Shown one piece after another: positions 1 through 51,942 of a stretch of 64,000 bases of DNA. Origin of the DNA: Chrysomallon squamiferum (lineage: Eukaryota; Animalia; Mollusca); contig CM022670.1 of assembly GCA_012295275.1 (NCBI GenBank), forward strand, positions 23,126,001 to 23,190,000, given 5' to 3'. Both the position numbers and the translations under genes were made by a program. The notes beneath the pieces were generated by a model. It was given only the letters and a program-made list of their open reading frames with translations. It did no database searches and was not told the DNA's origin. Position 1 is the first letter of the stretch; the number at the start of each line of letters is the position of its first letter.

Positions 1-3000
1 CGATAAAATAGAGAACATTCATTTGACGTTCCATATTATGAAGTTGTTACATTATTCTTATTTTATGAAAGGGTCATACTTGGCCATTATAAACAAATGT
101 TTGACTATACAATTGGAATTTAGATTCTGGAATACTTCACTTATTGACATAAATCTATCCATTTGCAGTTAAAAAAACATGAACAAATATATATCAAGTT
201 ACCCTGCCAAATACATATGAAAACAAACTTAGTGTCAGACATATCCTTTCCTATTTGAATATGCGCAGTAATCTTAAATACCTATAAATACCTGTTTCAT
301 GCTAAAATGTTTGTCAGTTTTAGCAAGAAGGTGAAAGTAAAATTTTATTACTTGAGAATGTCAGTTAAATTTGTAGATGTCAGAGAAATGGTTCCAGTAC
401 TGCAAAATTTAAAATAATAATAATTCTTATCAATTAACCCAGTAGAGCTATCTTTAATCACACTTCTTTCTTTTCTTGAATCAGATTTTATTTTATATAA
501 TTACTGAACTGATTTATTACTGTATTTTGTCAAAGAGAACCAACCACAAATGTGTAATTAAACAAATAGTAATAAAAAGATTTTTAAAAATTTAATGAGC
601 ACTGTATCTCCAGTAGAATGTGACGCAACTATAAATACATTTTCAAAAGGAATAACAATTATAGCTGGTGTGGAAAGGAGATTTTGAACAAACAGTTACA
701 TTTGTTAATATTTGTAATATCATTATATGGGTGGTGTTAACAGTAATCAATATATTTAGTATGTGTAGCGATGTCTCTGGAGATCCTTCATCAGCAGTCT
801 AAATTAGTTACTTTCCAGTAAAAACAAGAAATCGACCGTGTAGTGTTTGCTAATCATTACTAGGACTGCAGCGGACAGCTTTGGCGATATAACTTTGATT
901 CATCTGCCCACATTGGCCTGTCGAAATGAAACAAGAATGACCGATTTTTCTGTCAGCTGATGACCAGGAAGACTGGGAGTAAATTTGTTGCAGTCATGCG
1001 CAAGTTCTTTTGTTAACGAAAATAGAACCAATCGGTCTTTTAAACAATTTTTTCTCCCATTTTAAACCTTAATTAATATTCTTTCTTCTTTTAAAAATAA
1101 AATTAAAATAATACAAAAATAACACCCATATATTAACTAACACATTTTACAAAAACAAAACAAATTAAGTATTTTCAGATTTTGGAGAAAATGTCTGCCA
1201 GTAAATCATTGTGTTTCTGGTAATTAGTTGCCATCCTGTTATTGACCCTAGCTGATAAAATCATTAAACAAGAAACTGACTGACAAATCTATGCAGTTTT
1301 CTTCAAGTTGCCCTTTATAAATTCATGTTGAGTTTTTTCCTTAACTAAGTATGAAGCTGGACCAGTGTCAACAGATGCGTATCTTGTTAATCCTCAAACA
1401 CAGATCTTGGGAGATGTCTGTCGTTATAATCATCTTTCTCCACTTGATTGCAAATCTGGCTTGGCGGCCAGTCAAGTTATCCATTTGGTAAAGTTGTGAG
1501 AGTATCATCTTCCAGCCCACTGATCTATATAATCTCTCAGTCTGGTATCAGTCCATGTGTGGCATCCATTTCTCTTTGAAGCATCCTCTTCCACATCCAT
1601 TATTACAAGACGTGCTAATAGCTTGCATTGATTTGTGCTTACAATGTAAAACTTGGACCATATTGTGTGCAGTTGTTTCACATTTTCCTTGACAATGGCA
1701 TCTTAGATATCAATTTTCTAAACAACCATGACCTTTTGTAAGAGCATCAAAACAGTATTTTGGAATGCTAACAAAGAGGAGTCAGTTGTTTCACACATTG
1801 GTTATCATAAACATCATTTTGCATTTGTACCCATTTGTTTTGACTTCATAAATCTGTTTTAGATTAGTAAAAGAGAGAGTATTTCTGCAGGTGCACTTAG
1901 GTTTTTGTCTGTTTGTGTTTATCAGAATTCTTTTTATAAATATTTTATAAATAGGCAATGTTTTCTGTACAAACAATAGAAATTCATCTTTCCTTTTGTT
2001 TCTTACTATTGATAATAGTTTCTGATATAAAATTTCTCTGACGTTAGTGTTAACAAACTTATTGTAGTATTTGTAAAGATTTTTATTAGAATTCATAATG
2101 AAATTGGTTTTGTTTTATAAGATTAATTTTTTTCAATTTTTTTTTTCTTCTTGAATTGACTGGAATATTCACTCATATGACTTTGATAGGAGACATTTTA
2201 TACATTATTAATATCAATATATAGTATAATTGCCTACAGCTGAAGATGAATACATTCTTTTCATTTTATGTATATATTATTTTCTACCAGTCCTGCCTTT
2301 GTTCTGCAAAACAAATATTGATTGTAAAATGAGAGTTTTTTTCCACCATAGTATTTATCTTCTAGTATAAAATTTCATTACAACTCTGAATTTCATTATA
2401 ATTCATCCACCAGGTCTTCGCTTTGCTTCATCAATACTAACACTCCAATCAGAAATCTTTGTCCTTACAGCCACCTTCGTCTAAATGCCCTGGATATAGC
2501 AGTTATCACCAAACACCATATTACGTTTTTGTTGTCAATGCATTATTCAGCTGAGACCACATACATTATTCATTGACTGTAAACACATTGTTTTTCGCTG
2601 TTGTCTATCATTCTGTCTCTGGGCGGTGGACAGCTACACCAGTGTCACTCGGTCTGTTTGCCTTATGCTCTGTGGTCTTCTTCTTCTTCTTCATTGTGTC
2701 TATCGATCTGCGTTGTTCAGGACTGCAGACAGCATTTCCATGCAGAATAAGAAAGAGGATGTTTTCCACATTCAGTAATCGTGTTAGTGGTTTGCTGCCT
2801 AGCAGAGCTCTCTATTGCTTTCTTCAACCCAATCACAAATGGCTGTAGTGTACAAAGATACTTTTGTTTGTTGGTAACTGTTCTGTAAATAATTAACTAG
2901 CTGCTTCATGAAAAAAATACAACATTCTTTATTGCATTATGCGAAATGTTTTCTGTGATCACAAATGGAATGTTAATGTTTTTGTAGCATGGATAAATAT

Positions 3001-3591
3001 TAAATGATATGAAAAATTAGGCAAAAAAGTTGATTTTTGAACGCATGTGAATCAAGATTACATACATCTATAACAGAGAGGAAAAAACAAACAAAAAAAA
3101 CACCTAACCCCCTAAAAACACCAAACTCCCCCTTGACATCTAATCCATTTCTCATTTCACTAATGCAAGCATAATTATAAAACAACATGCAACACAGGCC
3201 ACCGTAATTTAAATAGTGTCTGAATAAATAAATACAATTAGATATTTAAACAAAAATTAAGAAGAATAAGAAAGAAAAAAGGATGACAGAGATAACCTTT
3301 TGTCATTTGTCTAAAAAGTTGATTGATTTAATTGAATTTACTTGCAATGAGAATAAGCAAAGGAGTAAAAAAAAAAGAATTAAATCAATTAATTTCCTTT
3401 GGGAGGTAACCATTTAGTTCTGTGCCAAGCAGGGAACCTCTGTGTTCATTAATGTAGCAGAACATTTTTGTTTTTTTTCCAAGGAAATTTTGTTACTTTT
3501 GTTATTTATTTATTTTCAAAAATCTTTTTATAAAAAAAAATTTGTAAAAATTGTATACATTGATATATGTAAATTATTATTATTAAAGTTA

Positions 3592-3633
<42 letters not shown>

Positions 3634-4186
3634 ATTATTATAATTATCTTCATCATCGTCATCGTCATCATCATCATTATTATTATTATAAGAGATTTTA
3701 TACATTTATTGTGAATTGTGTGAAGAGTAAGTCATCTTTAATTTCTACTGGAAGAAAAATATTTTAAAAATAACTAAAAAAGAAAACAAGAAAGCCTGTT
3801 CTAGAAGCAGTATTACCTGCATAATTATGTTGGGATAAATACTTTATATAAATGAAGTAATACAAACAACATATATATATATATATATATTTTTTTTTTT
3901 CTCCATACATAAATATGTTGGGGTTAATATATATTTATGATAGCAATGATTTGGCACTATGAATCACAGCAGTAATGGAGAAACACTTACAATAATACCA
4001 CATACAATTGGTATTTTTCTCTTTATGATGCATATTTAGTTTTACTTCAGTTTTCTAGATTGGCTTATATAGGGGATTGTTTTTCTGTTAACAGTGTTCA
4101 AAGGATTTAGCAAATATATATATTTTTTAAATTTCTGAATTCTGAAAATATCAAGGATTATTCAGTTCATTATTTATTAACAAAAA

Positions 4187-4220
<34 letters not shown>

Positions 4221-5252
4221 AATGTACAAAAATATTTTAGACATGTCTGTGCCTGCCAATATATATATGTACATCTATATAGATAGAAAGCTAGATAGAC
4301 AGGTAGATAGATAATGTCATTCATTTTATACATTTTACTGTGTAATGTTTGGACAGTTAAAATATTTCCTCAGATGTTATAGAAAACTGAATGTAAAAGC
4401 TGTTCTTGCTCTGAAGGTCACTTTCAGAATATTAAGTAAGCTTAAATTCTTCTGTGGTTTAAAAAACATCTGAAGAATCATGCTTAATAATTTTAAAATT
4501 TAAATGAACAAAACATTTCACATTGTGTAGGTTTAATATCTAGACTCCACAGCAAATCGAAAATGTAACATTTTCTTAATGTTATTAACAATCGTAAAGC
4601 GATCTTTCTTTGTGACTGTATCTGTTATTAAATGTTTTGTAAGTGCTTGCCATCAGAACTGAACAAAATGTAATTTAAAAAAGGTATTTTAGATTGCAAA
4701 TAGAAAGTGCCAGCATTCAGGAAATATTTATTTCCAATCTCTTGTTGCTATGACAATCCATTTAACAAGTTCAGTGGGTATAAAGAGGACAATCATACTA
4801 GGTTAATGGACAGAGCCAGGCTGTAATGAAAAGGTGTACAGGATAAAGGTATTTATTATTGATTTTCTCTTGCAATTCTGTCAGTGTGGCCGACTTGGCT
4901 AATGAAGTGGTTGTGATTGATGTAAAATACACGGGAAATAGATGTGCCTGATCTGTTTTTGAGATGTGGGAGGGATTGTTGATAGCAGTTCATTTAATTT
5001 TTTGTTGTTGTTTTGTTGTGTATTTGATACAGAAGTGTGTATGTGTACCTGTGTTTGTGTGCATTTCACTTATGTGTATCTGTGTATGTATGTGTGTGTT
5101 TGATATGTATGTGTATACACATTTGAATGAGAAATATAAAAATACCTTCAGTTTGTATATCTGTTTGTTTGTTGAGAACATTTGAAGGATATTAATGTAA
5201 CTTTATCAGTAATTATGAATATGTTCATTTAATTTGTAAAATGTGTGTGTGT

Positions 5253-5290
<38 letters not shown>

Positions 5291-5760
5291 GGTATGTTAT
5301 GTGTGTGTGTGTGTGTGTGTATATGTTATGTGTTTGTTAAGGTATGCTTTCTCAGTGTATGTACATGCATGTGAAAACAGATTCTTTCTTTTTCCTAACT
5401 TTACTTAACATTAAGCAGCTTCACAAAAACATTAAGAAAAACTCCCTCTATAACAATGTATTCACTTTTTAATATTTGCTGTTAGAGTCAATTGATAATA
5501 TTTTTATTTATTTTTCTGTTGTGTCAATGGTTAGTGTTAAGAAAAAAACAACTTTAGAAATTAGATGACACAAACAGTTTTTTAATTTATTTGCCCATGA
5601 CTGACTACTCATTATTAGATCAATCCACAGATGACAAAATGACTGTTAAAAATGCAAAATGTAAATTATTTTAAATTGGATAATGATAAGTAACTGGATA
5701 CAAGAATGTAAACATTTCGGTTTATATCATGAATACCTGTAGGATTTTGAAGTCATTTCT

Positions 5761-5831
5761 GTATTTGTCAATGCGAACGACAACGCGATGATCAGGATTG
5801 AAATGATAGCCAGTACCTGAAATGGAGGATG
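5761..5831 (+). promoter_or_regulatory. Intronic inverted complement of the Kv2 3' splice site and S1 codons (candidate ECS)
   Basis: 5778-5831 pairs with 8382-8435 (51 Watson-Crick, 2 G:U, 1 U:U); 5766-5776 pairs with 8440-8450. Confidence 0.85.
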
Positions 5832-7306
5832 CATGCATCTTCTGTCCCCCTCCCCTTTCATCTCATAATCATTGTACATTATTTTATTTAATCATAAGCC
5901 ATTTCTATGTTTCATCTCATTTTATATGTCATTATGATTATCATTTTCCTCCTGGTTTATCTCATTCGATCACATTGCATTTTATTGCCTTATTTATAAC
6001 ATTTTTATTTTTCCTCTGTTTTGTTTTTATTTGTTTTTCCTCAGTATATTTCTATGATGTCATTTTCCACTTTTCCTGTATTAAATACCTGTTGCTGTCT
6101 TTGAATGTTTTTAATGGAATCATCAAGTTAATTTTTGTTACTTGTCTGTTTAAATGTCAATCACACTATTTTCCAGTGTGTTCTTGCTTCTGTCTAAACC
6201 CTGTTTCATTCATTGCAAATGCTTTTCACATTCCATGTTTTAATTTGTGATGAAATATCAGTACACAAGTTCTAAATTTTTATATTCAGAAGTTGTTGCA
6301 GTAAATTTCTCTTGCATATACCTTCTTCTGTTTCTTATACAGGCATTATTCAGTAATGTGCTGTCAGTAACATAAAATGACATCATAGAAATTTTGACTT
6401 CATAAAACACTGTTAATAAATTTTTATGACAAAGTAATTTAGTTTCTTTGGTTGGTTTTTGTTTTAATAACAAAAGAAGAGAATTTTAATTGTCATTATT
6501 TCATGTTCATACTTCCATGTTTGTTTTTATAAATGATTCCAAACACTTGACATTAAAATTCTTATGTCTGGTGTCAGACATGTTTGGAGTCATCAAGGAA
6601 TGGTTGAAATGATTTGATCTAAAGGTATTCATGATTTACAAAACGTCAAATTATCGATTTCTTTTTCAGGTATGTTGACTGTATTGCAGTTTACTGTATA
6701 TATTTTGTGTTGTGCTGAATGTTTGTGAATTTAAATATGTGTTGTAATATTAACACTTTAATTCATTAACAATGTTTGAATGATTTTTTGAAATGTTACT
6801 AACATAAATGAATTTGTTTTACTGTTCAGCAGAGAATTTTAGCATAATACACATTACATTAAAATAATATTAATAATAAAGAAAATATAAAAAATACAAA
6901 ATGATATTTACAAATAATTGAAGTCATATTAATTACATACTTCTTAAATTCATTGGCTGATGCATATTTAAGAACAAGTTTATCAAATGTATGACCCTTT
7001 GAATTAGTTGGAAAAAATGTTGATCATACATTAATCACTAGATAATTTTCTATTTTATTTACACAAGATATGAACACTGAAAGTTTATAAATGTAACTAG
7101 CTCACAGAGGTCACTGTCAGGCCAGGATAATGCTGATGAATGTTAATGGTCTGGGAAGACATAATTGGGTTTTATCAATATCAAATTAACATTTTTGTCT
7201 CTCTTTGTATTAGCAATTTGTGAGCCATAAATTAACTGATGTTAAGGTCTGGCAATTGTTTTTAGCTTTTTACATAACTTTACATAAAATTATCAGAATA
7301 AATCTG

Positions 7307-7357
<51 letters not shown>

Positions 7358-7746
7358 TTATTATAAAGTCATTAAATATTTTTTATTAATTCTAAATTTT
7401 TTATTTTTTGAGATTAATAAGGTTAAGAAATTTTTTTGAGTGTAGTGCATAATTGTTGAAATATATTAGTTTAAAATGTAGATTGTATACAAATGAAGCA
7501 ACGATAGATTAATTTCAATTATTGAGACTGTTTTTAATGCATTACTGTAATTAAATATGATAATGTTTTTTTGTTTTTTAAATTATTATTTAAACTTCAA
7601 CATATCATTTACAACTTATTCCATAAAAGTATATTTTGAATACTAAACTCTCTTTTTATTCCAGGAATGTGTAACTTTGTTGTTGTTTTCTTTTTCCAAT
7701 ATATTTTCATGATTGATTGCTTGCTTGCTTGGTTGTTTCTGCTTCC

Positions 7747-8058
7747 ATGAAAGCGTGTCATCATTCATATTTCCAGTACTCCTTTCTGCTTGTGCTTGAT
7801 CAAATTTGTAACAGCGCTTCTGTTTTACTGAAAGCTTGTGTGAACTCATTGGTGTTTGAAATGGCAAAAATATTTTTACTTTTTTCCTCTCCTTCGTAAA
7901 TATCGGAATCTGCAGCGCAACAACATGTATACTACCTTCATTTCCTGTACAGCACACATTACCTGCCTGAACATTTTCTTCTTACCTTCCTTCCATCGTG
8001 ATCGTAATCTTTCTTCTGCCTCTCCTAATAAGCAGCTGTCACTGTTGCAAATATGCTA
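7747..8058 (+). promoter_or_regulatory. Degenerate collinear inverted complement of the Kv2 pore/S6 region (candidate ECS)
   Basis: Nested helices 7782-7811/9089-9117, 7901-7925/9041-9065, 7946-7963/9012-9029 and 8046-8058/8875-8888. Confidence 0.7.
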
Positions 8059-8396
8059 TCATTGCTCTTATGAGATGTCTAAGTCGTAACTTCAATGAAA
8101 TAAATCTCTAACTATTCTTTTTTATCTGGTGTTTTTAAATTTGCTAATATACCTTGTCAGGTTCTCACCTTTTGTTGTCTGTATTGTAAAAACATTCTTA
8201 TATGTAAACCAAAAATGTTGATCAAAGATAATTTTTGAAATTAAAATTATATAAATATATAAATTATAACAATGATAAACCTCGTATGTATTTGTGAACC
8301 ACATCAGTTTGTGATGCTCTATACAATATGGTTAAGATAATATTGTCAAGTTGGGCTGATTCCTTATGGTTTTCACTTGTTCATCCTCCATTTCAG

Positions 8397-9473
8397 GTGC
8401 TGGCTATCATTTCAATCCTGTTCATCGTGTTGTCGACAATCGCATTGACATTAAATACCATTCCGCAACTCCAGGAGCGGACAAACCCCATTGAACCTGC
8501 GGATAACGCCCGTCTTGCAATTGTCGAAGCTGTGTGTATAGGGTGGTTCACACTGGAATATTTAGCCAGGTTTTGGGCGTCCCCAAATAAATGGAAATTT
8601 TTTAAAGGCCCATTGAACGTAATCGATCTGTTAGCCATTCTTCCGTATTTCATATCTTTAGGTTTGACTGAAACGAACAAAAGTACTACAGAACAGTTTC
8701 AAAATGTGCGCCGTGTTGTACAGATATTTCGAATTATGAGGATTCTAAGAATTCTAAAACTTGCTAGACACTCCACTGGTTTGCAATCCTTAGGCTACAC
8801 TTTGCAAAGAAGCTACAAGGAGTTAGGATTGCTACTAATGTTTCTTGCCATTTCAATCCTTTTATTTTCTAGTTTAGCATATTTTGCAGAAAAAGACGAA
8901 CCAGAAACAAAATATAAAAGTATCCCAGAGACATTCTGGTGGGCAGCAATCACCATGACCACTGTGGGATATGGTGATATTTATCCCAAAACTGGTCTTG
9001 GCAAAATTGTTGGTAGTGTGTGTTGTATATGTGGTGTTCTTGTTATTGCTTTGCCGATTCCTATAATAGTGAACAACTTTGCTGAGTTTTACAAAGATCA
9101 AATGCGCAGGGAGAAAGCGTTTAAAAGGCGAGAAGCCTTAGAAAAAGCTAAAAGGACTGGCAGTATCGTGTCCTTTCATTCCATCAACCTGCGTGACGCC
9201 TTTGCACGCAATGTTGACCTCATTGAGGTCAACTCCCAAGGTCACAAAGAAGAGGGTTCTGATGTGTGCAGTGAACGAGAAAAGTTCGTTTCCAGTCCTC
9301 ATTTTGGTACATCGAAAAACAACGAGACGCAGGATCAGCCCGCTCGGGAGACCGACAGCAGCGATGGCACCCAGTTTAATCTGACCAACAGCAGCACCAA
9401 CAACCTTCTGGATACAGACGAGGAATCACTCAACAGAATGGCATCGCAGCCATTGCTGAATGCTCAGACTCAG
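8397..9473 (+). CDS. Shab: Shab/Kv2 (KCNB) voltage-gated K+ channel, large internal exon S1-S6 plus proximal C-terminus
   Basis: Acceptor tttcag|GTG and donor CAG|gtataa, 1077 nt, phase 0/0. Encodes S4 [21 protein letters not shown], filter TTVGYGD, S6 ALPIPII (Kv2-type PIP) and [24 protein letters not shown]. Confidence 0.96.
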
Positions 9474-11118
9474 GTATAATGATGTAGTTTTTTTTTTTAA
9501 ATTAGCGGCAGCATAATTCAGACATAACTCAAACATCTCTCATGTAATAAATTTGGGGCTTTTATTTTATTTTTTTTTAATATTCTTTATATTTTATTAG
9601 TTCTACAAGCACAGTCTATAAATTTCTAACACAAACTATTGATTTAAGTCATATTAAATAATTTATTATCATCATCATCATCATCATTACAATCAAATTA
9701 TAAATATTTTATTTTTTTTTATTTAAGTTTATTTATGTATATAATTTTTGTTTTGCATTGGGGTTTATATGTCTTTTTTTTAAAAATACATTTTTTTATT
9801 TTTTTTATTTAAATGTCAAATAACAAAAGCACTAAACAAGGCTGCAGCTCTCTGTTTCTCTGTTAAAGCAGATGACTCACAAATGACATAATCAACATCA
9901 GATCACTTAAAGTATATCTCTATGGAACATTTTCAGTAACTGAGACTCCCTAATCCTCTGAACACAGATCTCACAATGTCTCACTGCTAGTTTCAGCTTT
10001 TAGGATGACTGAGTTAACATTTAGTTGAAATACTAGAAACCATACAATATATAATTATTAATTAATGTAAAATATTTATATGAAAGCCATTACAGTTAAA
10101 AATTATATCATATTACCTGATTATTATTAAAAATTAAATGATCCTATGGAATCAACTGTCCATAAATGAGCAGGAGAAAATAAATAAACCTACCAGTTTC
10201 TTTATAATGTAATATAACATTATATATTTTTCTTTCACAAACCTGCTGGTTCAGAAATTTCCAACCAAAATATACCTCCATCTGCCTCTGAAAATATGAA
10301 TAGATGAACTGAATAGAAACAGCAATATTAGCTAAATGTGTAAGATGTAGTTTTCTTTCTTTTCTTAGAAAAGGAATAATTTTAGTGGATTCCAGTTTTA
10401 CAGTTTAGTTTAAAAATGGGTGCTGTTGTCTTATATAATAATAAATTTATATAACAAGTAAGATCTTCTCCCAGTTTTTAATGTTATTAGATATTCTGTA
10501 TTGTTATTCTGAATATTCAAAAGATTTGCTAATTTGTGAAAGTATGCCGACTTGAACTGATAACTCACAATTAGGTTATTGTTTAATGGCTGTTATCTTT
10601 GATGCTTATTCGAAATAATGTACATTAGTTTTATTTTAAGTAAAAAAATCAATAAATTAAAAAAAAAAATTCACAGAAATTAAATCAGGATATAGAAAAT
10701 ATTATTAGAAAAATGGATTTTGTTGTAAATATACTTTTGAATTACCAGTACCATGTAGTGTTTTTTGACTAACATTTTATATGGAGGTGTATGTACACAA
10801 ACACACACCATTTTACCCCCAAATAATCTTCTATCATTGGACATAAACATTTACAATGATTCAGTTAGTTGTTTATGTTTTTAAAATAACAGTGTTTTTT
10901 CCAATTGCTGGAAAAATTATACAAGAATGAACATTTATTTATTAAACGATACCTTTCTACTAATGATTATCAAATATAAGGTTGTTGTGTAATGATGTTG
11001 TTACTGAAGAATATAGTTACTATCCACTTCACTGGCAACAGATAAACTTCTGTTTTTTAATATATTTATCATATATAGAAATATATCATGACCATTAATA
11101 AGTCAGTTTTGAGTCATG

Positions 11119-11172
11119 GAAGTTTGAACTTGAGACCTGTCATTCCTCAGTTCTGCTCACTAACCATTAAGG
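11119..11172 (-). mobile_element. Possible decayed tRNA-derived SINE head
   Basis: Minus strand reads taatggttag (A-box-like) ... agttcaaac (B-box-like) at tRNA-like spacing; no intact cloverleaf. Confidence 0.3.
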
Positions 11173-14100
11173 TAAAGTCCTCTACTTGAATGTCAGGGAC
11201 ATGAGGTCAGCCAGCAATATCCGCTTTGTAATAACATTTTACACTAATCTTACATTTCTTTTTTTTTTTTTTTTTTTAACCCATGTCCAATCAATTTCTA
11301 GGCTAGTTCTTGCTTTTTTTTTTTTTTTTTCATTTTCAAATAAAATGTTCTTTCCTTTTTATGTATTTTTTTTACTGCAAATTAATATTGGAAGCTGTCT
11401 AATAGAGCAGATAATTAGATTATAATTAATCAAAAAGAAATGCTATAAAAAAAAAAAATCAAGAAAAGAAGAAAAAAAGCCTATTAATTCTGATTAAATC
11501 GTTCATTCTACCGTCAGGCATTTCCCAATTACTATAATTTTGCTCTTTCTCTTTTTCTTAAAAGATCTTATGAGTTACAGTAACGATTCATTCAGTCGAA
11601 AGTTAATATTTAAAAAGTACATATAATATATTACAAATAAAACATTTTGTGTATGTGTGTGTGTGTGTGTGTGTTTTGTGTTTTTTTTAAAGAAAGAAAA
11701 AATCTATTTCAAATTGTAAGTGCACAAACATGCACTTTAATGTGTTAGTCTATTATGGCTCTGTAACTAGAGACATGAATTATTCAGTGATTACACATAA
11801 TTATACACTTTTTGTTTCCATTTGCTTTTAAAGAAATTTCAGTACAAATAGATCATCATGCGTCTGCTTAGACTGTAAGATAGTCAAGTATAGACAAAAT
11901 ATTTTTCTCTTGGAGTCTTCATTCGTTGCTGCTAGGTGATTTTGTGCTCGATGCCTTGTATGGTCTTTGATAGATTTGAAACAAGGAGAAAGTATTGATT
12001 AAACTACAAAGATGTTGCCAGTTTACATCTCTAGACAGGAAACATAAGTACACTTAACATTTGCTACAGGGTTTTTCACCCAGATTTTCTGATCTCAAAT
12101 TAGTTTCTGTTCTTTCTTTCTTTTTTATTTTCTTTTTTCTTTTTATTTCCTTTTTTGTTGGAAGGTCAAATTCATTGACAGTTCATTGAACAGAACTATA
12201 TATTTTAATCTGAAAGATTTGTCGTTTATCTTAAGTTCAATACTGTTTGTCCTCTTGAGGTTAAATAGAGGTTTTGCATTTTATTTCTTTATTTTCCGTA
12301 AATACTGTTAAATAGTTAAGTAAAAACAGCTGTAAGTCAGTGATGATATATTGGTCATGTCACAGTTTGATACACTGGAAAATATTTTCTTTTATTTACC
12401 CTTTGCAATTCTTTTTCAGAATTAATATTCTGACTGTGACAAAGTGCCTGCTTGGTTTATTAGTCAAGTTTTTACTAACAAGTTACCTCTGCAGTGATAC
12501 TCGCTGTCAAGAGATCTGGTCTGAGCCATGGTACAAAGCTGGATCAGTTGATAGTATGTCTGACATTCCATGATTTATAAAATACTCAGGAAACTGAACA
12601 CACTTACAGACAGAAGTTTTTACTTGGTTTTAACACACAATGTTCAGAAGTCTCAGAGTATATAAGACTAGCTCAGATTTGAAATAATCATTCAGCTTAC
12701 AGATTAAACATTCATTTTCCTTTCCATTATTCTTTTTTCCTTTTGCTGTGGTGAAGCAGCAGCAGGTTTCTTCTCTAGTATAAACAAAATCATTCAGCTT
12801 ACAAATCACACCTTAATTGCTCATTCCAACGTGGCTTTTATTCCATTTTTATTACCCAAGTTTTAATATTTTCCAAAACATAGTCAGTGAAATGACTGAG
12901 TTGGCTGCTTGCTGCATCTGTTACAAGAAGTGAAAAATTTGCTTTAAACATTTCATGAATACTAATCTATATACTGGCGCCAGGAAAATTAATGAAGTTA
13001 TCTGAAGAACATCCTCTGTGGGAAATAAAAAAATTAATTCATAAATATTTAAAATGAACATTTGTTCAAGTAATATAAAATGCATACTGTAATTGGGGCT
13101 GTAGTGGAATGCATTACTAATTTTGTCATGAAAAAAGAACAGCAAGAGTATGATTATATTAACTAAAAGTAGTGATTTGAATGAGTTCCAGTTCTTCAGT
13201 AAACTGTTTATATCTTTAGACAGGTTTATCTTTTGTCTTAATTTTTTATTACAGTTTAGTCAAAAAAATGCTTATTTTATGCTGTTTGTTGTGATTTGTT
13301 TTTTGTTTTTAATTTAATTTTTAATATATTTTTTTTTTATTTATTCATGTTTCTTTGTTGATTTGTAATTTTTAATTTATTTTTATATATGTTTTTTTTT
13401 TTCAGCTTAGTGGATTAACAAAGAATTTATCAAATATTATGCGCATTTAAATCTAATTTCATTAATATTTTTTGATTCCTAATAAGAAGAAATTGATTTA
13501 ATATAATCCCCATTTTTGTTTTTTTAATATTGTAAGGAAAAAAAAAAAAGAAGAAGAAAAAGAAGAAGAAGAAGAAAGAATAAATAAATAAATAAAAAAA
13601 CATAGATATAAAATAAAACAATATATCACAAACAAAAACCCTAAATGAAGGCCCCTAACTAAAGTATATTAAATTTATTCTCCCCACCCCCATAAATATG
13701 TTGCAGATGCTATGAGACATTATTGTTCAATCATGATATATTTTGAGTGTTTGAAAAACAGGCAATATTTTCTGAACCAGCTTGTTTATGGAATTGAAAT
13801 GGTATGAAATAGTAAAATAATTATGAAAATTAGTGCTAAGATGAGGGCAACAACAATAAAAACAAAACTAGTGTCATTTACATTCTTTTTTCTTTTTTTT
13901 TATGACTTTTAAAATTAAAATCGATTATTTAAGATTTTTTTGGTTGAAAATCCAGGCATGAAAACAATAAATAACTAAACAAATAAAAAGGAGAAAAAAA
14001 AAGATGAAAAATAACGAGAAAATAAACAGTTTATTTCTAACCTTATTTTCAAATGACAACAACATCACTTCCAACAAAAATAACAACAGGAAGCTGATAA

Positions 14101-14362: not shown

Positions 14363-14425
<63 letters not shown>

Positions 14426-15033
14426 GTCTTGAAGAAAGAAGGCCTATAATTGATTTATTGTATAACAAAGAATATGTAACAGGGAATATAAATACAGGGA
14501 TAATGCTCACAGAAATCTGATACTGCGCTTCATCTAGATATAAAAACTTTAAAAAAACAAACAAAAAAAAAAAGCAACAAGAAAACAAGAAGAAAATCAA
14601 TACCACTGAAGAAAACAGTACCTTATATTGGCTAATTTTTTCACCATAGTCAATAATCTTGTATGGGAATATTATCTAAAGATATCTGTCTCTGAAGAAA
14701 AACACATATTATTAAGGCAAAACAAAAGAGTACTTATCTTTCTGTAGTATTTAATTATTTTTATTTTTATTTTTATTTTTCATCAAATGCTTTTGACAAA
14801 AATAAATTTCATATTAACATTATATTCTTACAAAATCTTTTAATTATTACTAAGCTTGACAAAAAAATACAGACAATAATTTCTGTATTTTTTTAATCGT
14901 TTTTGCTAGCTATATCAAACATCTTATTATAGAAAAGAAAATAAATTTAGAATGTCAAGAATAAAATAAACTGAACAGTCCTGTCTACTGGCATTCTTTA
15001 TTTTTTATTGTTGTAATAAAATATTTAAAATAA

Positions 15034-15065
<32 letters not shown>

Positions 15066-17248
15066 ATTGTTGCCCTGTTTAATGTAACTGTCATTTGTTA
15101 GGCTTAACTGTGAAAGACTGTTCAGTTAGTCACGTTCTCTTTATGTCCTCTTTAGATGAATCTCCCTACTTTTTTACAGAATTGTGGGTGGAATGATGGT
15201 AATGAATCACTCTAATAGCTGTCAGTTTCACGTTTGTGTTTTATGCCAAGATTCAGAATTAGGTTCAACAACCGTGGTGTTTGCATAACAAAAGAAAACA
15301 AAAACGATGAAGTTTTTATCTTTTTTAAACACTTCAACAAGCAAAAAAACAAATCAGTCTGTTTGAAAGGAACTTAATTCTACTGAATATTCATGCTCAC
15401 CAGACTCTGGCACAATACAGAAGTCTGTGCTGTCAAGCTTAAAGAGTGTGAAGTATTTATTACAGAGAAAAAAAAAAAAAACGTAATCAATTATTTTTGG
15501 ACAGGAAAGAAAGAAATATTTTATTTAATGATACACATTTTTAATCTATGATTGTTGGGAATTAATCATTTGGATAAGTTCCAGAAAAATAGAAAACCAA
15601 TCTGAAGGGCTACTTTTTATTTTATTTTATTTTTTTTACTTGAGAGAAACATAATTTCATAAGAATATTGTACTTATCTTCATAATTATGAAGCACGAGG
15701 TTTAAGAGGAAAGTGCTAACTGGGAATGATGATCCTGCCATTGATCATGCAGTAGACTCTTGAATAAAATCTAAAATAGGACAAATTACCCTTAGTATCA
15801 CATTGCATGCTGATATAATATATCTTTCTAAAATCTCATTTCAGTTTGTGATTAACATATGTAATTATTTTATTAAGGCCTCAGAAAGGAAATGCCTCAG
15901 TGTGAAATTTTACAGTTTTCAGAATCTCTGCAAACAAACAGTGTCTTAGTATGTACAAAAATCAATATTAATCTACGTGAAGATTTACTTTCTATCAATT
16001 AACTGACTCTGAAAATTTACACTTTAAAAGCAGAGGTGAATAATGAACCAGTGTTTGGATGGAGTTCTCCATGTGAAAGGTCAAACCATTGACATGAATC
16101 TACTAACTAGAACGTGAAACCTTTGACTCTGACAGGTTTGTAAAGAGAACAGAAATTTTCATTAGCACACACTGATATAACTTACAACAAGGTTTGCCCT
16201 AAACTTTATTGCCTGGTATAGTCAAATTCTTTAGAATGGAGATGGTGTAAAGGCACCATAGGAGGAAATTAGCATTGATTACATTCTCATTTTAAAGCTA
16301 TTTGGTCAAATGGTGATTGGTCAATATCTATTTTAACTGACCAAATTTAATTCTAAAACTGTTAGGCTGTTACTTGAGAAAATGGAAAATTGTCTTCTAA
16401 AAGAAGAAAGGGTATTGACCTTTGAAATTTGATGATAAAACCTTTGGAAAATGCCAGCTTATCAATAAAAAACAAATTTGAGAATTTGATCAGTGTAATT
16501 GCTATAGCAATCTGATTTCCAAACAGTTCACTTAACTGAAATGATATTTTGTTTTATTTAATTATAGCAGAAAAACAGAAAGCTGCAATGCCTTGGTATT
16601 AAAATTTTAGAAATTTTGTAGTCAAACATTATTTTTTCATATAGCATAACTGTTTTATTAATTATATTTGAATAAGTTTACAATGAATTATAACAATTTA
16701 AAGCAACAGTTCTAAGCAGATTATATCCCCCCCCAAAAAAAAACATACACAAAAACAACAACCAAACCAAACAAACAAAAACAACATCACATTTATTACC
16801 TTCAACCAAAATCTAAGTCTAAGCTGTGGCCCAGACAATAATTTTGATCCTGATATTTTCAAATTATCTTTGTTACATTTATTTCACCTTATAACCTTAT
16901 TTAAAATTTTAACAAATTTTATATTTTTATTTTATTATTATAAATTATTAGTTTTTTGGGGGTTTTTTCAAACAGAAATGAAACCATTCTATTATTATTA
17001 TTTAATATTCTTCTTCTTCCTTTTTAATTTAATTTTTGTTTTCTTTCAATCATTTATTCCTGTTGTTTTATTATTTCTAATACTGGAAAATATGTATGCG
17101 CTGAATGTTAAATTCTCTTCTGTAGTTTATAACTTGCCTCTCTTGGGTTGGAATTTTTCAGTCTCCATCAGACACTGATAGATTTTGTATTCGTGACTCG
17201 AGGAATAGAAAACCAACACGAGTGACACCTTATCACTGAGTCCGCAAA

Positions 17249-17295
17249 AACGACACCACCTTTCGAAACCTTTAACTCTGATCTTTATGAACTCC
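17249..17295 (+). promoter_or_regulatory. Intronic inverted complement of Kv2 exon positions 18700-18744 (candidate ECS)
   Basis: aacgacaccacctttcgaaacctttaactctgatctttatgaactcc against exon reverse complement aacgaaaccgcctttcgaaactttaactttggttttatgaactcc. Confidence 0.8.
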
Positions 17296-18133
17296 GTTTT
17301 TCAAAAACCTTTTAGTTACATAGATATAAATTTTTCTTAATCCTTGAATGAGAGATTATTCTGGAAAGAACATTTCGACCCATTGATAATTTATCTGGTG
17401 TTTTTAATTATCTTGCATCCACTGGGTGTGAAAGAAAGTGAGTAACATTGCACAATCTTTGACAAATTATCTGTGAACACTACTGTACTTTACTTCATCT
17501 TTTTTCTTCTTTTTTTAAAAAAAACAACAACAAAAAAACCTTTAGTAATTCTTTAACAGGTACAAGTAATAAATACATTTTTATCTAATGACAATTGCAG
17601 ATTCTCTCACTTCATGAGACAGATTTCAACAGAAATTGTTCATCTTCTCCTTCCTTGCCATTGGTATGCAGAATAGTAAAGTAAAAACAAACAACAACCA
17701 AAAACAAAATCATAAAAAGGAAAAAGGAAAAGAAAAAGAAAAAGAAAAGGAAAACACTAGAATTCCTTAGTATATTTAATTTTTAAAAAAGAAAAAGAAA
17801 AAGACAAATATTAATTTAAAATATTAAATTATAAGTGTCTGTGGAGAACAAAAGTATTTGATTTTTGTTCATAAATTTCAGAATGATTAAAACTTTCCTT
17901 TTGTACTGTCCTCCATTATTTTGGGTTTTTTAATGTAATAATTTTTAAAATGGAAATTGGTAACAGATACATGCATAGATTTAATAAGTTATTTATAACT
18001 GCACATTCGCTGGGACATTATGTATTCAATTGCAATGTTTTTCAGTGTGATCATACTGTTTGTTGTTTATGCAGTTGAAACTGTATTAATAACTACATTA
18101 CATTAATTGCTGTGATTTCTTTATTGAATTTAG

Positions 18134-18824
18134 GGTAGGTATGACCCAGTGCTGCCAGATAAAAGTTGCATCGAAATGAAACAGCTTCACCGCCAAACGA
18201 GCTCAACTAGCACAGACACATATGCCAGCTGCACGACCCACCCCCAGGACAGTCCCTCCAATCTGGCTCAGCCCATCACCACTGACAGTCCCAAACACAA
18301 TCTCTATGTGAACCCTCTTGACGCCCCTTCTCGACTGTCTAACCCTCCTCAGTCACACTGCCCACCGTTTCATGGCCATTTCAACGATTTGCATGAGTAT
18401 TACAATAGCCAGCAGCAAGAGACTGGATTTAACAGACCGAGTGTTCAGTTCTGCCCTAACCAAGTTGTTCAGAAACTTGACAGTGGCTTGACGACGACAT
18501 GGGAGTGTGAGAATCTCGTACCCAATCCTTCACCGACAAGTGACTCGGGAGGTGTGGTGAGGCAGCTCCGCCCGACTCTGCCTCCTCCAAAGAAATCCAG
18601 CTTTAAACGATACAAATCATTATCCGTGGAGAAACATCCGCGGTTCGCAGATATCATTAATGAGAGAAACTGTTCTTCCACGGACAATCTCCATTCTCAG
18701 GAGTTCATAAAACCAAAGTTAAAGTTTCGAAAGGCGGTTTCGTTGGCAAATCGTCTGCATGCAAGCAGTCCATCAACAGGCAGGAGGCTTGCCAACTATC
18801 ACCTTATAGCAAACACAAAATCAG
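18134..18824 (+). CDS. Shab: Kv2 C-terminal exon containing a PRC/FFAT-like motif
   Basis: Acceptor tttag|GGT in phase 0 matches the previous exon; donor TCAG|gtaaga is phase 1. Open, GC-elevated, Ser/Pro-rich frame (ORF 18149-19036). Confidence 0.85.
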
Positions 18825-21558
18825 GTAAGACTTTAGTTATGTCCTTGAGAACCAATCAACAAGGCACAATGTGCATGATTTATGCTTCAGTTTATGTTAA
18901 TTTTAATTTATTAATGTGTGGTGGGAATTTATTAATATTATTATTACTCCCCTTGTCATTCCTGTATTCAACTGCACAGAAATCTTTGTTAGAGTTAAAA
19001 CACCCACACACAATCAATCTGCATGGTTTTAATTAGTTTTGGGTGGAGTATAAACACTCCTGGTTTTATAATTAATATTTCAAATTAAGGATAATACAGT
19101 ATTCATCTACTGTAATGAAATTAGATATTAAATCAAATAACATTCTGAATATTTTACTGAAATCATATCAGTCACTACTGATACACTGAATAGAAAATAT
19201 ATTGGGTTTTTTCTTTTCCTTTTTAAATCAATATGTCAACTACATAATGTAATAATTTACTCTAAGACATTACTAATAGATTTTGTCTTTGTCTGATGGT
19301 TTGTATTCAAGTTAGGTCTTAATAACTTAAGTCTCTAGCTCAACCAAGACCATAAAATACACTCTGTTAACAGTATTCCTCACTCTGCTGGAAAAAGTAT
19401 ATAAAGATTTTTTTGCTCTTAATAATTAAGATTAGTCTTAGAGATGATGACAGCAGGATTCCTGTCTTAGATTTTATCACTGCAGCAGTTCTTATCAAAT
19501 AAAAATATGATGTGGTCTTGTTCAAATCATTTTTTTGGTCTTTTTTGAAATTGTTTTCTAATGATTCATATCAAATATATATAAATACTTATTAATACTA
19601 CTACAAATACTACTACTGATAAGTAAACTTGTGTGCATTATTATCTTAAAACATCACTTGACAAGATAGCCACATTTAAATATTCCACTAAATACTATTT
19701 ATACACAATAGACATATATCAGTATGAAATTCTGCACAACATTAAACCGTGTATGGTATTTTCTTAAATTATTTATTTGTTAATTAAATCATTATCAAAT
19801 TACAGATTCCGGAAACAATTTTACAGCCAAATAAAAATTTGTTTTTATGTTTAAGTAAGAAAACAGTTTCAAACGTTTTTTTTTTTAAATTCTCTCAGTT
19901 CTATCAAATCATAATTTTATAATTTTTTAAAATAATTATTGATTATCAAACAAAACAGTCCATAACCTTAAAACAACAACAACAAACAAACAAAACCTCT
20001 TTGAAGAAACACCAGACTATTTATTCTATTGAGAAAAACAGATTTTCTAGACTTTCCAAATATTGGTGCCATTATCACTTTTTCTATGCTATGAAACACT
20101 TCACTAAGCATCCAAAACCACAACAAGCAGGCAGCACAATTTCCTTAATTCCACATTTGCATCAGTTTCTAGTTCTCAAAGATGGGTAGCTTTTCTGCAC
20201 CATTAAACAAAATCCATATGTCTAAATGCCAGAAGAAACTGTCAAAACACTGGTAACATGATCTATGGATTTATGAAATATTAATAAATCACATTCATCT
20301 AATTCTTTATTCTAAAATTTATTTTTGGAAATTAACTTTGTTTTCTTTCTTTTCCAAACAAGAATAGAAAAAAAAAAAAAAAAAAGAATACAAAATTTAA
20401 TGATTTGTGAAATTGTTCCAAAATTAATTCATGATGAAAGAATAGTGAAATGAAGAAGAAGAAAAAAATATTATGAACATACATACTTTAATAAATGACA
20501 GAGATGACAAATATTGACTCTTTTTTTGTTACATGTAATTTAAATTTTAAATAGCCAAGTTGAAAATGTTAAAAAAAAATTTAAAAAAATAAAAATAAAA
20601 CAATAAAAAAAATATTGAAAATAATAAATAAATAAATAAATAAGTAAATAAATAAATAAATAAATAATTAAACAATTTGCATTTTGACATTTCCAAATTC
20701 ATTCAGTGGATTATTCATATTATTTTTATTATAGATATATATGTATGTATAATTCATTTAGCATTAAATTTAATCGTTTGTTTAGTTCAGATTTTAAAAA
20801 CATCAGTATTAACAAAATGAGCTGATTTATCTATTCCTTTATTTCTTGTTTAATAGGAAATAATTCAGTTTCTTTTGTTAAATTTGGAAATCTATGAAAT
20901 TTTCATAATATTATTTTATTTTATTTTATTTAAATATCTACTTCATGCGACCAGTAACACGTTTTTAAAACATATTTTACATAGGACAAATGCAATCTGA
21001 ATTTTGTCCATTCAAAAATATATATTATCTTGTATTGTACAAAAAAAAAAATGGAGGACATTAAATAACAATAACAACAACATTACTGCTAAAAAAGTTC
21101 CTTTCATTTAAAAAAAAAAAAAAAATTATTTATATAAATCTCTTTCTCTGTGTTACACAACCTGTAAAAAAGAACCATTATGAAAAAGATAGTTCCTTTA
21201 TGAAGATTACAAAACAGAATTAAGTTCTAAAGAGTGGTCACAAGTGAAATCATGTAGAAAATAATTACAAGAGAATCTGAATTACTAATTTCTTAATGTT
21301 TTTCATTTGACCTGAATCATTATATACTTATCTAAAAATTTAAACAAGATCCTTTGTTTAGCTTTCCTTTTTCTGTTCTATTTAAAATAATTATGTAAAG
21401 AATATATATTATTTAACAGGAGACATAAAATGAACTACATTTTGTGGACTAATGTTGACCATTAATTCATTCATCCACAACTCTGATATCACACTTAGTT
21501 TCCAAACTTTAGTTCCCACTCCAGGGTTAAACTGCACGTTTGATGTAATTAGATTTTT

Positions 21559-21591
<33 letters not shown>

Positions 21592-24353
21592 CATCATTAA
21601 CTTTGCATTCCTCACCAAATTATCTTGCAGATGAAACTTTTCTACTCAACTGAAGAGGTGAGTGGTGTAATTCGCAAGGAAGGGCGCTTCATGTAATGAC
21701 AGAGCACATGCACTGGTGTGACCTGCACAAGAGCAAGTAGTAAAAAAATTCCCCCAACCCAAAATGGAGCACCAGCTAATAAATTAACTTTTATTTCATT
21801 TTTTTTTTTTTAAACAAAAAAACAAAACAAAAAAACATTATATGTAATCATAATTGCATGTAAAACAAATGTATGTGTAAATCATGGTATATGTATGCAT
21901 ATATACCATGTTAAGGACAAATTAACTAATTTTTCATAATAAACAAATACTTTTACAAACAAAACTATATTGACATAAGCTCTGCAGTTCACCAGGGTAT
22001 TTTGGCTTGTTTCAAACTCCTGCGAACTAAATGTGCTTTTGGCTTCATTCGTCTAGTGTACTGGTCAAGCTGTAGTATGCCTTGTGAATATTCATGGGCT
22101 TTTTTTTACATCACAGTTGCGCTCCGGTTCATTGTTGTAGTTCTTTAGAACACCCCTGCCCACCTCCCCCTCTCTGCTTGACCATGTCTTTCCCTCACTT
22201 CCACAGCCGTTCACCTCTGCTTTTGTGATGGTCACACCAGTCCAGCGGTCCACCTCCCCTGTCCACCCGCCCAGCCAGTCCACCCTGACACCATACTTGC
22301 TTTACCACTAATGTCTTATATATATGTAGTTAATATAATACATTTTCAAAAATGATTATTAATTGCTGATCATTGATGTTATTGTATTCTGAAAAACGGA
22401 AATATAATAAAGTCATTTGTATCAGAAAAGAACAGAGCTGACATTAAGTAAGCTAAATTCATAATGAGAGCATTTCTCATGTTTAAAAATTGTTAAATTA
22501 CTAACATGAGTGAAATAGATTAACATGATGACAAATCCAGAAAAAGTTAATATAAAAATTTAATTCAAAGAAAAATAAATTTGGTGTGAATTATAAAAAA
22601 GTTTTAAATCATTGAACACTTGAATTCAATTTCTCAATTATTAATTATCATTTTTTAATTTGCATAGTAATAAAAGAAATGTAGCTATGCTAAGTAGTGC
22701 AGTTTTGTGTAGTGTTGCTTAAAATAATTAAAATAAAAACAAACAGTATTCCACTTTTCAGTACTTTATGACTTTGGACATCGATGGTGGGTCAGACACA
22801 AATTATTAAATAAAATATTTGTTATTCACAAACTAAAATAGATATATTAAATTAATAGTGCTTCCTTTGCTTTGAAAAAACATTCCGCATAGAATGAGAG
22901 ATCTATCACATTGATTCAGATATTTGACTTCAGCAAATTAGCATTTTTATACATAATCTTTCAGCAGACTTTTTATGTATAATTTCATATTCATTCAACA
23001 AGATAATCTAATATCCTTTCTTCATTTTCTGTTTTTTTTCTGTTACTTTTCAATTTTCTTAATTTTAGAAACTTTGCAAATGTATTAAGTAAATAATACA
23101 TGGGGATCAAACAGATATTTAGCAGTTTTTATGTTTGTAAAAACAATTAGTTTAATTATTTTCTTTAATAAGGCATTCAGTGTTTTAGAATAATGCAAAA
23201 TAACTATGAGCAACAGGTTTGTAAAACTTTAAAACAAATTTATTTATTTATGTATTTATTTATTTATTATATTTTTTATGCATGTTATGCAAATTCAGTG
23301 TACATGTTTCTTACTCTGTTGAAACTATAATTAATTTTTTCTGTACTGACTATCTTAATACTAGGAATTTTGTTTTTAGTGTAAAGTTATCTCAAGATTG
23401 TCAGGAATCTAGTTTGGCCACAGATGGTTAATCAAAAACTGAAATCTCTTACTGCTAACTGATAGAAACACCTTGCAGAGTGACATCAGCTTATCAGCAT
23501 AGTACAAATTCATATATTCTGCAATTAATAATAGTTGTCAGTACAAATTAATTCACAGTTTTGTTAAATAATCATTCAATCTTTGACAAGTGGTAAAAAT
23601 GTTTATCATTTACATTGAATTAACATCTCATTTTCTTTATTATTAATTGCACGTTTGAGTTGATACAAATTGTACCAGATCCTCTGAGACTGAAAATGTT
23701 GTACCTGTTCTGGCCTAACATCTTATGTCCCTTCCTTTTTGTCCATCCTCTCATCTTCATTGGTATTAACAAGGTGAAGGAGGAATTCCACAAAATGTAT
23801 TTCTGTCATAAAGTTATTGTACCTTTTGCTATATGAAATATTTGGTGTCTGTTGTTTAAAGCAATGATGTTGTTTATGAATGTACTTACTTGAAATTTTT
23901 CTTCAGATTAAAAACAAAACGGAAGAAAAATAAAGAAACTTAGAATCATTTCGCATAATTTAAATGACTGTATTTGTTTATTTTGATTAAATCATATATA
24001 TATATATTTAAATTTTAAAAATATTTTTTTTTGTTTTGTTGCAGTAATAATTTTTTTGAAGACTTGTTTTATTGAAGTTTTAATTTTATATCATATATTA
24101 TATATACATATATAATTTAATGATTATTAAAATTATTACAGTTTTGTATCTCTGGAAATTGAGCTTAATCTGATATCTTCATTTTAACTAGAAATATTTA
24201 TAATTTAATATACATATCACAGTATTTGTTTGACATTTATGTCACAGTTTTTTTTTATCATTGCTTTAAAAAATAACTAATAATAAGAATAATAATACAA
24301 AAAATATTTAACATTACTTGTCAGTTAAATCTCATTTCTTTGTTTATTTACAG

Positions 24354-25153
24354 GTTCTCTACCAAACAGCAGACACAACTTGGACCAGGTAAAACACGAA
24401 AAGCTGTCTCCTGTCCAGCGATCTAGTCCATGTCTGTTTGAACCTTCACCTGCTAAAAAAAGATCTATTTCAAAAAGAGATGCTTATGACTGTGAAGAAA
24501 CTGAGAACCTTCTTCTGGCTGCTTGCAGCCACGGTGAGTGTCCAGAGGTCACGCTTTCTGCCCGGAATGGAACTATTTGTGATAACAGTATATACTCTAA
24601 TTCAAAACTGCAGTACCCGAACAGTATCCCCAAACAGACTGCCACGCAATCAGGTGACCAAATTCAACCCACCACTCTAAAGTTCACGAACATCGAAGGT
24701 CCTGAGGATGACCATCAGCTGTTCTCACTGGGCAGTCCTGATCGATCAGAAGAGGACGTTGAGTTCAGTGACAGCATGGCGAATCATGCCAAAAACACCT
24801 TGCTGTGGAAAGCCAATCGTACGAGGCCGATGACATCACCAATGTACGACACAAGCCCGTCAGACAATTTGGAAAATGATGACAGTCTAATTTATTCAAA
24901 TTCTGCTGATTATTCTGCTTTCTCAGACTCCAGTCTTTCTGACCCAAATCTTCTGCGGTCTTCCCCATCAAGTGACCTGGTCAGTCGAACTGGGGGGAGT
25001 CGAACAAGTGGAGAGGACCACACAGTGAGTGTGTATGACACAGCTGAATCAGGGCCTCCAGACAGTGATTCTAACATGGACAGCACTGTTAATGTGATTT
25101 CCTCAGACGACAGTAGAGATCTGACTATAGTGTTTCCTGATTCTAGTGGATAG
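24354..25153 (+). CDS. Shab: Kv2 terminal coding exon
   Basis: Acceptor tttacag|GT completes the phase-1 Gly codon and continues in the frame of ORF 24380-25153 to TAG. Ser/Asp-rich tail. Confidence 0.8.
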
Positions 25154-27037
25154 TTTGTCTACAAATAGAGTGTTTTTACAAACAGGTAGGCTGATTTTGT
25201 TTCATTTCACTGACAGTTTGCTTTGCTAATTTGCTGTTATTTTTGGTGTTTTTAAATTTAAGAAACAATTTTAATAGTTTATTCATTCTGAATAGTTGTT
25301 GAGGTTGTTGGTTTTGTTTTGCTAATATCTTTGTTGATATCTTTGTTTATTTTTTTATATTATTATTTCAGTAAATTGTTTAATGTCTATGTTTAATATT
25401 TCAGTTTGATTCAGAACAAAAAAGAAAGTTGACAATGCTGTGGAAAATGTGAAACTGAAAACAAACCACAGTACAAATGTGATGTTACACTATGGTTTGC
25501 AGTAACCAATCATGTTGAGATTCATCCATTCTTCCAGCTTGTCTGATGTAATCTCATTCCTCATTGGATGGTGCTGACAATACTGAATACTGCTTTCTAG
25601 ACAACGGGTCTTTGGAGCTACTGGGAGGTCATTGCAGATGTGAAGCCATATTTATGCAATTATTATGATGTATAGCCAATGAATTTTCTACACTTGACTT
25701 TTTTCATCTGTTTACACAAGACTGTGATCTTTTCGCCATCTTTAATCCAGTTTTAGTACATTTTGTTTGAACTATTAGTCACTAACAATCAAAATATCCT
25801 GTAGTTAGCATTTAACTTTTTCAACTCTTGAACATATTTGTTATTCTTAAAAAAAAAAAAAAACTTTTAGATTTTTTTTTCATTTACATTTTTATTACTC
25901 GCTGTTTATAGCATTCATGACAGTTGGGAATAAGACAGAGGCTGTTTCACTGTTGATAAAACAGAGTGTGAAGGCAGGACCATCACAGGAGGCTCAACCA
26001 TGGACAGATTTTTTTTTTTTTTTTTTTTATCAAGTTTAAGAAAAATAACAATATTCAAATACTGACACTGCTCAATGGTGACGTTCCCTTAAGACAATTT
26101 CTGAAAGATAAAGGGGAATTGTGGCAGTGCCTGGGTGCTGGATTCAAGCTATAGCTTTGCCCTAATGTATCAAGGCTATCTTTACACAGAATAATTTTAT
26201 TACTGTTCTTATTCTTATTATTGTTATACAAATAGGTCTTGTAGACAGAAACAAGTAAAAAAGAAAGAAAAAGAAATAAACCGTAAATCTTATTTCATTA
26301 GCCTCAACTAAAAAGGTCAAATTTCTTTTAAAATTTAGACTTTTTTAATTTTTGTTTTTAAAAATCAGTGACCATTAGACTAACATGCATAACACAAAAA
26401 AACAAAAAACAATAAACAATACATACTATTAAAAAAATATATATTTAACTTTATTTTTTATTTTTTAAAGTCATTGTTAACGTTATAATTTTAATTAATT
26501 TACCTAATTGTTGCACAATATTTTTACAGATACTTTTTATGCCTATTGTTTTTCTGACAGTGGATTAGATTTTATTGTCTAATTGAATGCTTTATTGGTC
26601 TTCATATTTCATTGGTACTTAAGGTTACACAGTCATTATGTTAACATTACTTTCTCAGAATAACACGCTCTTTACACAGGTTTAATAATGTTGTTTTAAA
26701 ATGGAAAGAAAGTTTAGTATTTAAATCCTCAAGCAATTAATAGAATGAAAATAGCTGTTTGAACTGAATTTAGTTAGGACTAAAAAAAATTGTTTTTATT
26801 TATATAGATTGTTATTACTGACATTAACATAAATGTAACAAGAAAGTATGTTAACTGCTTTAATTTAAATCATGAATATTAAATATTACATAGATGTTAC
26901 CCTTTTCAAGACAACAAATGCAATATGTATAAATACCTAGCTGAATAACATCTTTACAAATTAAACCAAATTTGATTTAGTCAACTGCATTCAGAAGAGA
27001 TTAATGATAGCTGGATAATACTTTAATAATATTGAAA

Positions 27038-51042: not shown

Positions 51043-51151
51043 GTAATAAATTATCCAATAAATTAAATAGGAAGTTATAGAATTAATTATTCTATATTAT
51101 ATATAAAATCAAACCCAAAGTGAAAGTTATGAAACTATTAAAGCTAAACAG

Positions 51152-51186
<35 letters not shown>

Positions 51187-51907: not shown

Positions 51908-51942
<35 letters not shown>

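Follow-up and report, generated by a model that had tools for sequence, protein, structure and literature searches.

Introduction

The Ile-to-Val recoding of segment S6 in the Shab/Kv2 channel has been described in Drosophila (I681V), Bombus (I533V) and four coleoids, and mammals are similarly edited. It has been called the only instance of recoding known to be shared by metazoans at large (PMC6453909), and I681V is listed as highly conserved (PMC5319793). For the editing of squid Kv1.1 and Kv2, the directing structures were stated in 2009 to be unknown (PMC2606942); for a bug, a hairpin has been drawn that encloses a Shab site near this one (PMC10937787). This study concerns a Kv2/Shab gene on the plus strand of a 64-kb stretch of contig CM022670.1 (64,000 nucleotides, hereafter the window), and an intronic element, D3, that is a candidate editing complementary sequence (ECS) for the S6 site. 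The gene family and the codon, 21 codons past the pore Tyr, are those of the known Shab/Kv2 edits; the difference is that the host appears to be a non-coleoid gastropod and that a candidate structure can be named.

Three other described systems resemble this locus. In mammalian Kv1.1, the equivalent Ile lines the inner cavity; its substitution I400V speeds recovery from inactivation (PMC3265383), and the editing is directed by a local hairpin in an intronless gene (RF00485; PMC3265383, PMC2606942). The Rfam model of this hairpin matches the window as well; there, however, the hairpin does not fold, and the partner is intronic and lies about 1.1 kb upstream. In Drosophila Shaker, conserved intronic ECSs (e1-e3) are found in drosophilids only (PMC2606942). 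In paralytic, an ECS and a donor complementary sequence (DCS) form a pseudoknot, in which the DCS masks a splice site and modulates editing (PMC4299485). As predicted for the window, the intronic elements of Shaker and paralytic pair with exons over a long range. Unlike those of Shaker, partners of the type described here recur in mollusc-like, other lophotrochozoan-like and arthropod-like loci; and whereas the paralytic DCS spans a donor, the window's element D1, whose use is putative, spans an acceptor.

The original prediction, made from the letters of the window, held that seven intronic antisense elements serve all three Kv2 coding exons as one recoding system. The analysis below supports a narrower view, centred on the core of D3.

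Results

Intronic elements were scored by antiparallel alignment with G:U pairs allowed, against 100 dinucleotide shuffles and 60 synonymous-codon shuffles; in the partner scans, exon starts were set 1-3 nt inside the final boundaries. The D3 core (7893-7963) aligned with 9012-9073 at a score of 58, a value matched by 3/100 and 3/60 shuffles when the whole exon was scanned and reached by 0/200 when the S6 segment was taken alone. A longer element, 7747-8058, had been proposed; its core stood, while its flanks were weak (p 0.04 and 0.23; z -1.1 and -2.0). The predicted duplex contains about 55 pairs (-57 to -60 kcal/mol), compared with the imperfect duplex of at least 20 bp expected of an ECS, and is bulged on the intron side at 7936-7945. 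It contains a single A:C mismatch, C7921 opposite A9045, which was visible before the comparison with RNA. In an unconstrained fold of 7850-9100, 9044 pairs with 7922 and 9046 with 7920, and A9045 is left unpaired facing C7921; the duplex pair probabilities beside it are 0.86-1.0. The spacing of this codon from the pore Tyr matches that between Y660 and I681 in the fly, and the Ile is invariant in 18/18 aligned proteins.

A9045 might instead be edited by way of a hairpin formed within the exon, as happens in Kv1.1 of mammals, the intronic element being incidental. RF00485 matches 8964-9077 with 72.8 bits (gathering threshold 51). However, it matches 12/12 of the Kv loci tested, partner or none, and the match therefore reflects coding homology; many of the model pairs are non-canonical in the window, and the consensus pairs are largely broken. 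The segment folds no better than its shuffles (z 0.20; 113/200 as good), and reaches -21 kcal/mol against -57 kcal/mol for the intronic duplex. This explanation is considered highly improbable.

Of 22 runs listed, two recorded as RNA contain the exon, and contigs of four of the 22 were compared with the window over 5700-9600. In the exon contig of RNA run X8 (depth 15.1), position 9045 is G. It is A in the same-species DNA run X5 and in the relative X10, neither of which is matched to X8 by individual. The X8 contig differs from the window at five positions, of which four are listed: A9045G, A8786G, A9428G and C9353T. A8786G and A9428G are synonymous and common to X8, the second RNA run (X9) and the relative; because X9 and the relative carry them, polymorphism is their probable origin. 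C9353T does not correspond to ADAR activity.

In the relative, the D3 element is kept above its flanking intron. The X10 contig matches 7902-7978 (10 substitutions, 2 gaps) and then 8318-9247 (82 substitutions), and has no match to the 339 nt between (7979-8317). Six of the 12 changes in the core are listed, three of them in the bulge at 7936-7945 and the other three where the helix abuts it.

For other animals, metagenome contigs were scanned. This yielded 80 Kv-type loci, or 55 after duplicates and loci without the S6 motif were dropped, and in each locus ten 85-nt exon segments were tested against the flanking DNA (a partner being z of at least 3). Among the 37 other Kv2 loci with 1 kb or more of upstream sequence, an upstream S6 partner was found in 8, compared with 6/269 tests of the nine other segments (Fisher p=3.9e-5). 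The partner-bearing loci comprise two bivalve-like loci (L001, L003), three of one lophotrochozoan-like clade (L010, L014, L015), two arthropod-like loci (L007, L017) and the unplaced L026; these placements are approximate, since the tree is a quick version. All are upstream, at a distance of 1.5-5.2 kb from the site, and the exon start is equivalent where it was checked. In whole-span folds, 41-49 of 56 S6 bases pair with the partner in 6/6 loci tried. A C opposite the S6 Ile A also occurs in L010, L014 and L015. The partner of L017 has a C opposite the site too; L017 and L018 differ at 2/1040 positions, one of which is the site (A/G), in records that may be DNA or RNA.

The S6 duplex region also stands out in its codons. 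Synonymous codon identity was higher in the duplex in 15/15 pairs among six partner-bearing loci (the pairs being non-independent), with a peak of 0.75 at S6 compared with about 0.35 elsewhere; the rise was absent in seven control pairs without partners, several of which had few aligned codons. When a TG-rich run was removed, the partner was still significant in 5/9 loci: the window, L010, L017 and L026 (0/100 each) and L007 (2/100). Across the nine loci, 25 columns show double-sided change, partly by construction, as the partners were chosen for complementarity. A MAFFT alignment of the partners misplaced the window's element and is uninformative on homology. Resemblance among the partners cannot tell ancestry from convergence, because any partner has to fit a conserved exon. 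As a separate observation, several loci (L024, L025, L030, L031, L033 and others) have a Val codon at the S6 site already in the recorded sequence; of the loci with Val, an upstream partner was found in L017 only.

A masked blastn self-comparison over all 64 kb placed D1 first among the inverted matches (5766-5831 with 8382-8450, E 1e-14). D1 scored 99, whereas the highest score was 65 among the 100 dinucleotide shuffles and 62 among the 60 synonymous-codon shuffles, and its predicted duplex has 71 pairs at -116.5 kcal/mol. At the exon 1 acceptor it spans the AG together with the polypyrimidine tract, and it crosses D3. Both gaps of D1 are 3 nt. A bulge at 8436-8439 leaves A8439 of an Ile codon unpaired, and Octopus and Ostrea have Val at that S1 position. 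No RNA change falls in the exon arm (8397-8458) among the four listed of the five X8 differences, and no S1 partner was found among 36 other loci. X10 contigs do not cover 5700-5961, which holds the intronic arm, although absence from contigs proves nothing. Among the differences listed, X10 and the window show 0/71 exonic changes within 8380-8467 and 30/281 downstream (Fisher p=0.001).

D2 is exon 2's best partner (score 67, reached by 0/100 and 0/60 shuffles). Its first arm (17249-17295 with 18700-18744, E 3e-5) is joint second in the self-comparison, level with a non-coding pair at 43969-44759, and a second, colinear arm pairs 17346-17397 with 18648-18696. It has two A:C mismatches, one at 18716, where editing would change K to E, and one at 18663, where it would change E to G. 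From its sequence, D2 may be regarded as a second candidate ECS. D1 and D3 are present also in contigs of a same-species DNA run (possibly the window's source) and of an RNA run, which makes an assembly artefact unlikely. An origin of the elements in a single old inverted copy of the whole gene was rejected, as their order is not that of the exons reversed and D1 crosses D3.

The other proposed elements did not hold up. The islands 2595-2725, 21649-21691, 22000-22080 and 22135-22299 were at chance level against each exon (p 0.11-0.99 in 12 element-exon tests) and were dropped as exon partners; they include every element proposed for exon 3, so that D1, D2 and the D3 core are the three of seven that beat the shuffles. 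The proposal that each exon has a partner fails for exon 3, for which no above-chance partner was found anywhere in 1-26000 (best score 45, null mean 42.5). Nor is an excess of G:U pairs a general feature: the first arm of D2 has no G:U and three A:C or C:A mismatches, and the overall tally of 23 G:U to 7 A:C is biased by a scoring that rewards G:U and is not evidence. As a control, 15 exons or approximate exons of two neighbouring genes were scored; one beat 100/100 shuffles (score 47), and a second scored 44, equalled by 3/100. These neighbours (50719-53346, plus strand; 58990-64000, minus strand) are presumably an inositol monophosphatase 3 (IMPAD1) gene and a DLGAP5-like gene.

That all the islands form one multi-ECS system recoding the three exons thus deserves hardly any credence. 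D1, D2 and D3 are real, and both A:C mismatches of D2 fall where editing would recode; against this stand the four chance-level elements, the partnerless exon 3, and D1, which has no RNA change in its exon arm (among the listed differences) and no counterpart in the X10 contigs or the other loci.

The N-terminal T1 exon of this Kv2 lies upstream, outside the window. Exon ends were set by splice motifs and, for exon 1, additionally by the RNA contig (Table 1). The protein of the S1-S6 exon matches that of Haliotis at 84%, Patella at 81% and Octopus at 75%, and groups among gastropods in the quick tree, without strong support. The greater similarity to Haliotis and Patella than to Octopus bears out the non-coleoid host that the original prediction had considered; the sequence points to a gastropod.

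Table 1. Coordinates of the Kv2 exons, the S6 site and the intronic elements in the window
Feature	Position	Strand	Basis
E1, Kv2/Shab S1-S6 and proximal C-terminus	8397..9473	+	Translation, homologues, splice motifs; RNA contig 8396-9473
E2, Kv2 C-terminal exon	18134..18824	+	Open reading frame; match to mollusc Kv2 tails by eye; ends from splice motifs
E3, Kv2 last coding exon, intronic partner not above chance	24354..25153	+	Open reading frame; ends from splice motifs
D3 core, candidate ECS for S6 (9008-9073)	7893..7967	+	Alignment, shuffles, fold, X10 piece 7902-7978
First base (A) of the S6 Ile codon; ATT would become GTT (Val); counterpart of Shab I681V	9045	+	RNA run X8 G; X9, X5, X10 A
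D1, near-perfect inverted copy of E1 acceptor and S1 start (8378-8458)	5761..5835	+	Self-comparison, shuffles, duplex energy
D2, two-arm inverted copy of E2 18648-18744	17249..17397	+	Self-comparison, shuffles
D4, weaker possible hairpin with S2 (8500-8556)	8304..8364	+	Post hoc; exon-wide score 43, not significant

Several further observations concern this DNA. Near D4, the intron end (8318-8396) has just two listed differences in 79 nt in X10; the X10 changes at 8512-8513 would improve the pairing of D4 with S2, and that at 8543 might break it. The islands 2595-2725, 21649-21730 and 22000-22300 are GC-richer than the intron and partnerless within the window; they could be regulatory elements or partners of the upstream T1 exon. 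Another GC-richer island (12484-12575) lies behind a possible acceptor and has a short frame closing in a stop; perhaps it is an alternative terminal exon that yields a short-tailed Kv2. At 43969-44759, the non-coding match is made up of one inverted repeat inside another: 43969-44023 matches 44709-44759, and 44163-44209 matches 44648-44689, an arrangement that resembles the termini of a non-autonomous DNA transposon. A phage search gave no match.

Discussion

The results suggest that the intronic element 7893-7963 pairs with S6 in unspliced RNA and directs ADAR to A9045, recoding Ile to Val; the probability of this reading is put at roughly 0.78. In the proposed mechanism, the 70-nt element would pair with the S6 codons while the intron is still in place, and ADAR would deaminate A9045 opposite C7921, so that part of the transcripts is recoded. 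The cavity-lining Ile would become Val, and, by analogy with Kv1.1 I400V and the Shab edits, the Val channel may gate differently. Three points are inferences: the G in X8 represents inosine, the duplex arises in vivo ahead of splicing, and the Val form gates differently. The original prediction had proposed shuffled controls, A-to-G changes in RNA and conservation in relatives as checks. D1, D2 and the D3 core exceed the shuffled controls and four elements do not; the RNA gives a mixed answer, G in X8 and A in X9, with DNA not matched by individual; and the D3 core is retained in X10 while the neighbouring intron diverged. The ECS interpretation accordingly survives for the D3 core, where the exact site is G in one RNA run and the element is kept in a relative and recurs in other loci; for D1 and D2 it is conjectural, and for the four chance-level elements it falls away.

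Several results weigh against this reading. RNA run X9 has A at 9045 (depth 4.6, three letters from the contig end), and the consensus bases of contigs carry no editing level. D3 alone is marginal on the exon-wide shuffles. Among the other Kv2 loci, 29/37 have no S6 partner, and the partner-bearing ones are related rather than independent, amounting to about five lineages besides the window. The A pairs with a U in L001, L003, L007 and L026; in L001, L003, L014 and L015 significance is lost when the TG-rich run is removed; and in L007 and L015 the antisense strand outscores the sense strand. In a 22-species editome, the rows named "shab" belong to ant, flies and octopus and none to Aplysia or oyster, although other names are possible (PMC9989829 Table S5); the Aplysia and oyster samples of that study are whole animals (PMC9989829). 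Because the X8 contig carries other SNP-like differences (SNP, single-nucleotide polymorphism) and the DNA is not matched to it by individual, a SNP at 9045 is possible.

The last point belongs to a broader alternative, in which a variant in the genome accounts for the G, and the matches in the introns arose by chance or as neutral inverted micro-duplications. It draws further on the non-coding DNA of the window, which holds inverted repeats of similar strength (43969-44759), and on D1, which has no counterpart in X10 or in the other loci. However, such a variant would be nonsynonymous, at a residue invariant in 18/18 proteins, and would fall on the one A:C mismatch predicted for D3. Also against this alternative are the retention of the D3 core in the relative, where the adjoining intron has diverged, and the S6-specific enrichment across animals. 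The alternative is therefore considered improbable.

For D1 and D2 the balance is different. By their sequence they are real inverted copies, any role of theirs in editing is putative, and neutral inverted duplication is a fair reading of both. In a model based on its position, D1 may delay splicing and thereby favour editing; it is equally likely to be a young neutral inverted copy.

A more far-reaching proposal is that the S6 partner is one ancient element of the protostome or bilaterian ancestor, that the Ile-to-Val edit was inherited across molluscs, other lophotrochozoans and arthropods and is routine in gastropods and bivalves, and that D1 holds the intron until the pore codon is edited. 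This proposal is offered tentatively and is thought somewhat doubtful as a whole.

A fly table of predicted ECSs (PMC4573499) has no row for the four Shab pore and S6 positions. In the literature, which was covered in part, no description was found of an upstream intronic partner for the S6 site or of an invertebrate Kv2 structure for it.

In sum, D3 is a well-supported candidate ECS, judged from sequence comparison, for a well-known recoding site; the host group is new, and such partners recur across phyla. With the element narrowed to 70 nt and an A:C pair predicted, the mechanism can be put to the test, and the upstream partner may serve as a genome-only predictor of which animals edit the S6 site. 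The question of ancestry versus convergence of the S6 edit also becomes testable. If the reading presented here is true, the S6 edit extends to non-coleoid molluscs; if the ancient-element proposal is also true, gastropods and bivalves, which are thought to be poor recoders, would edit S6 routinely.

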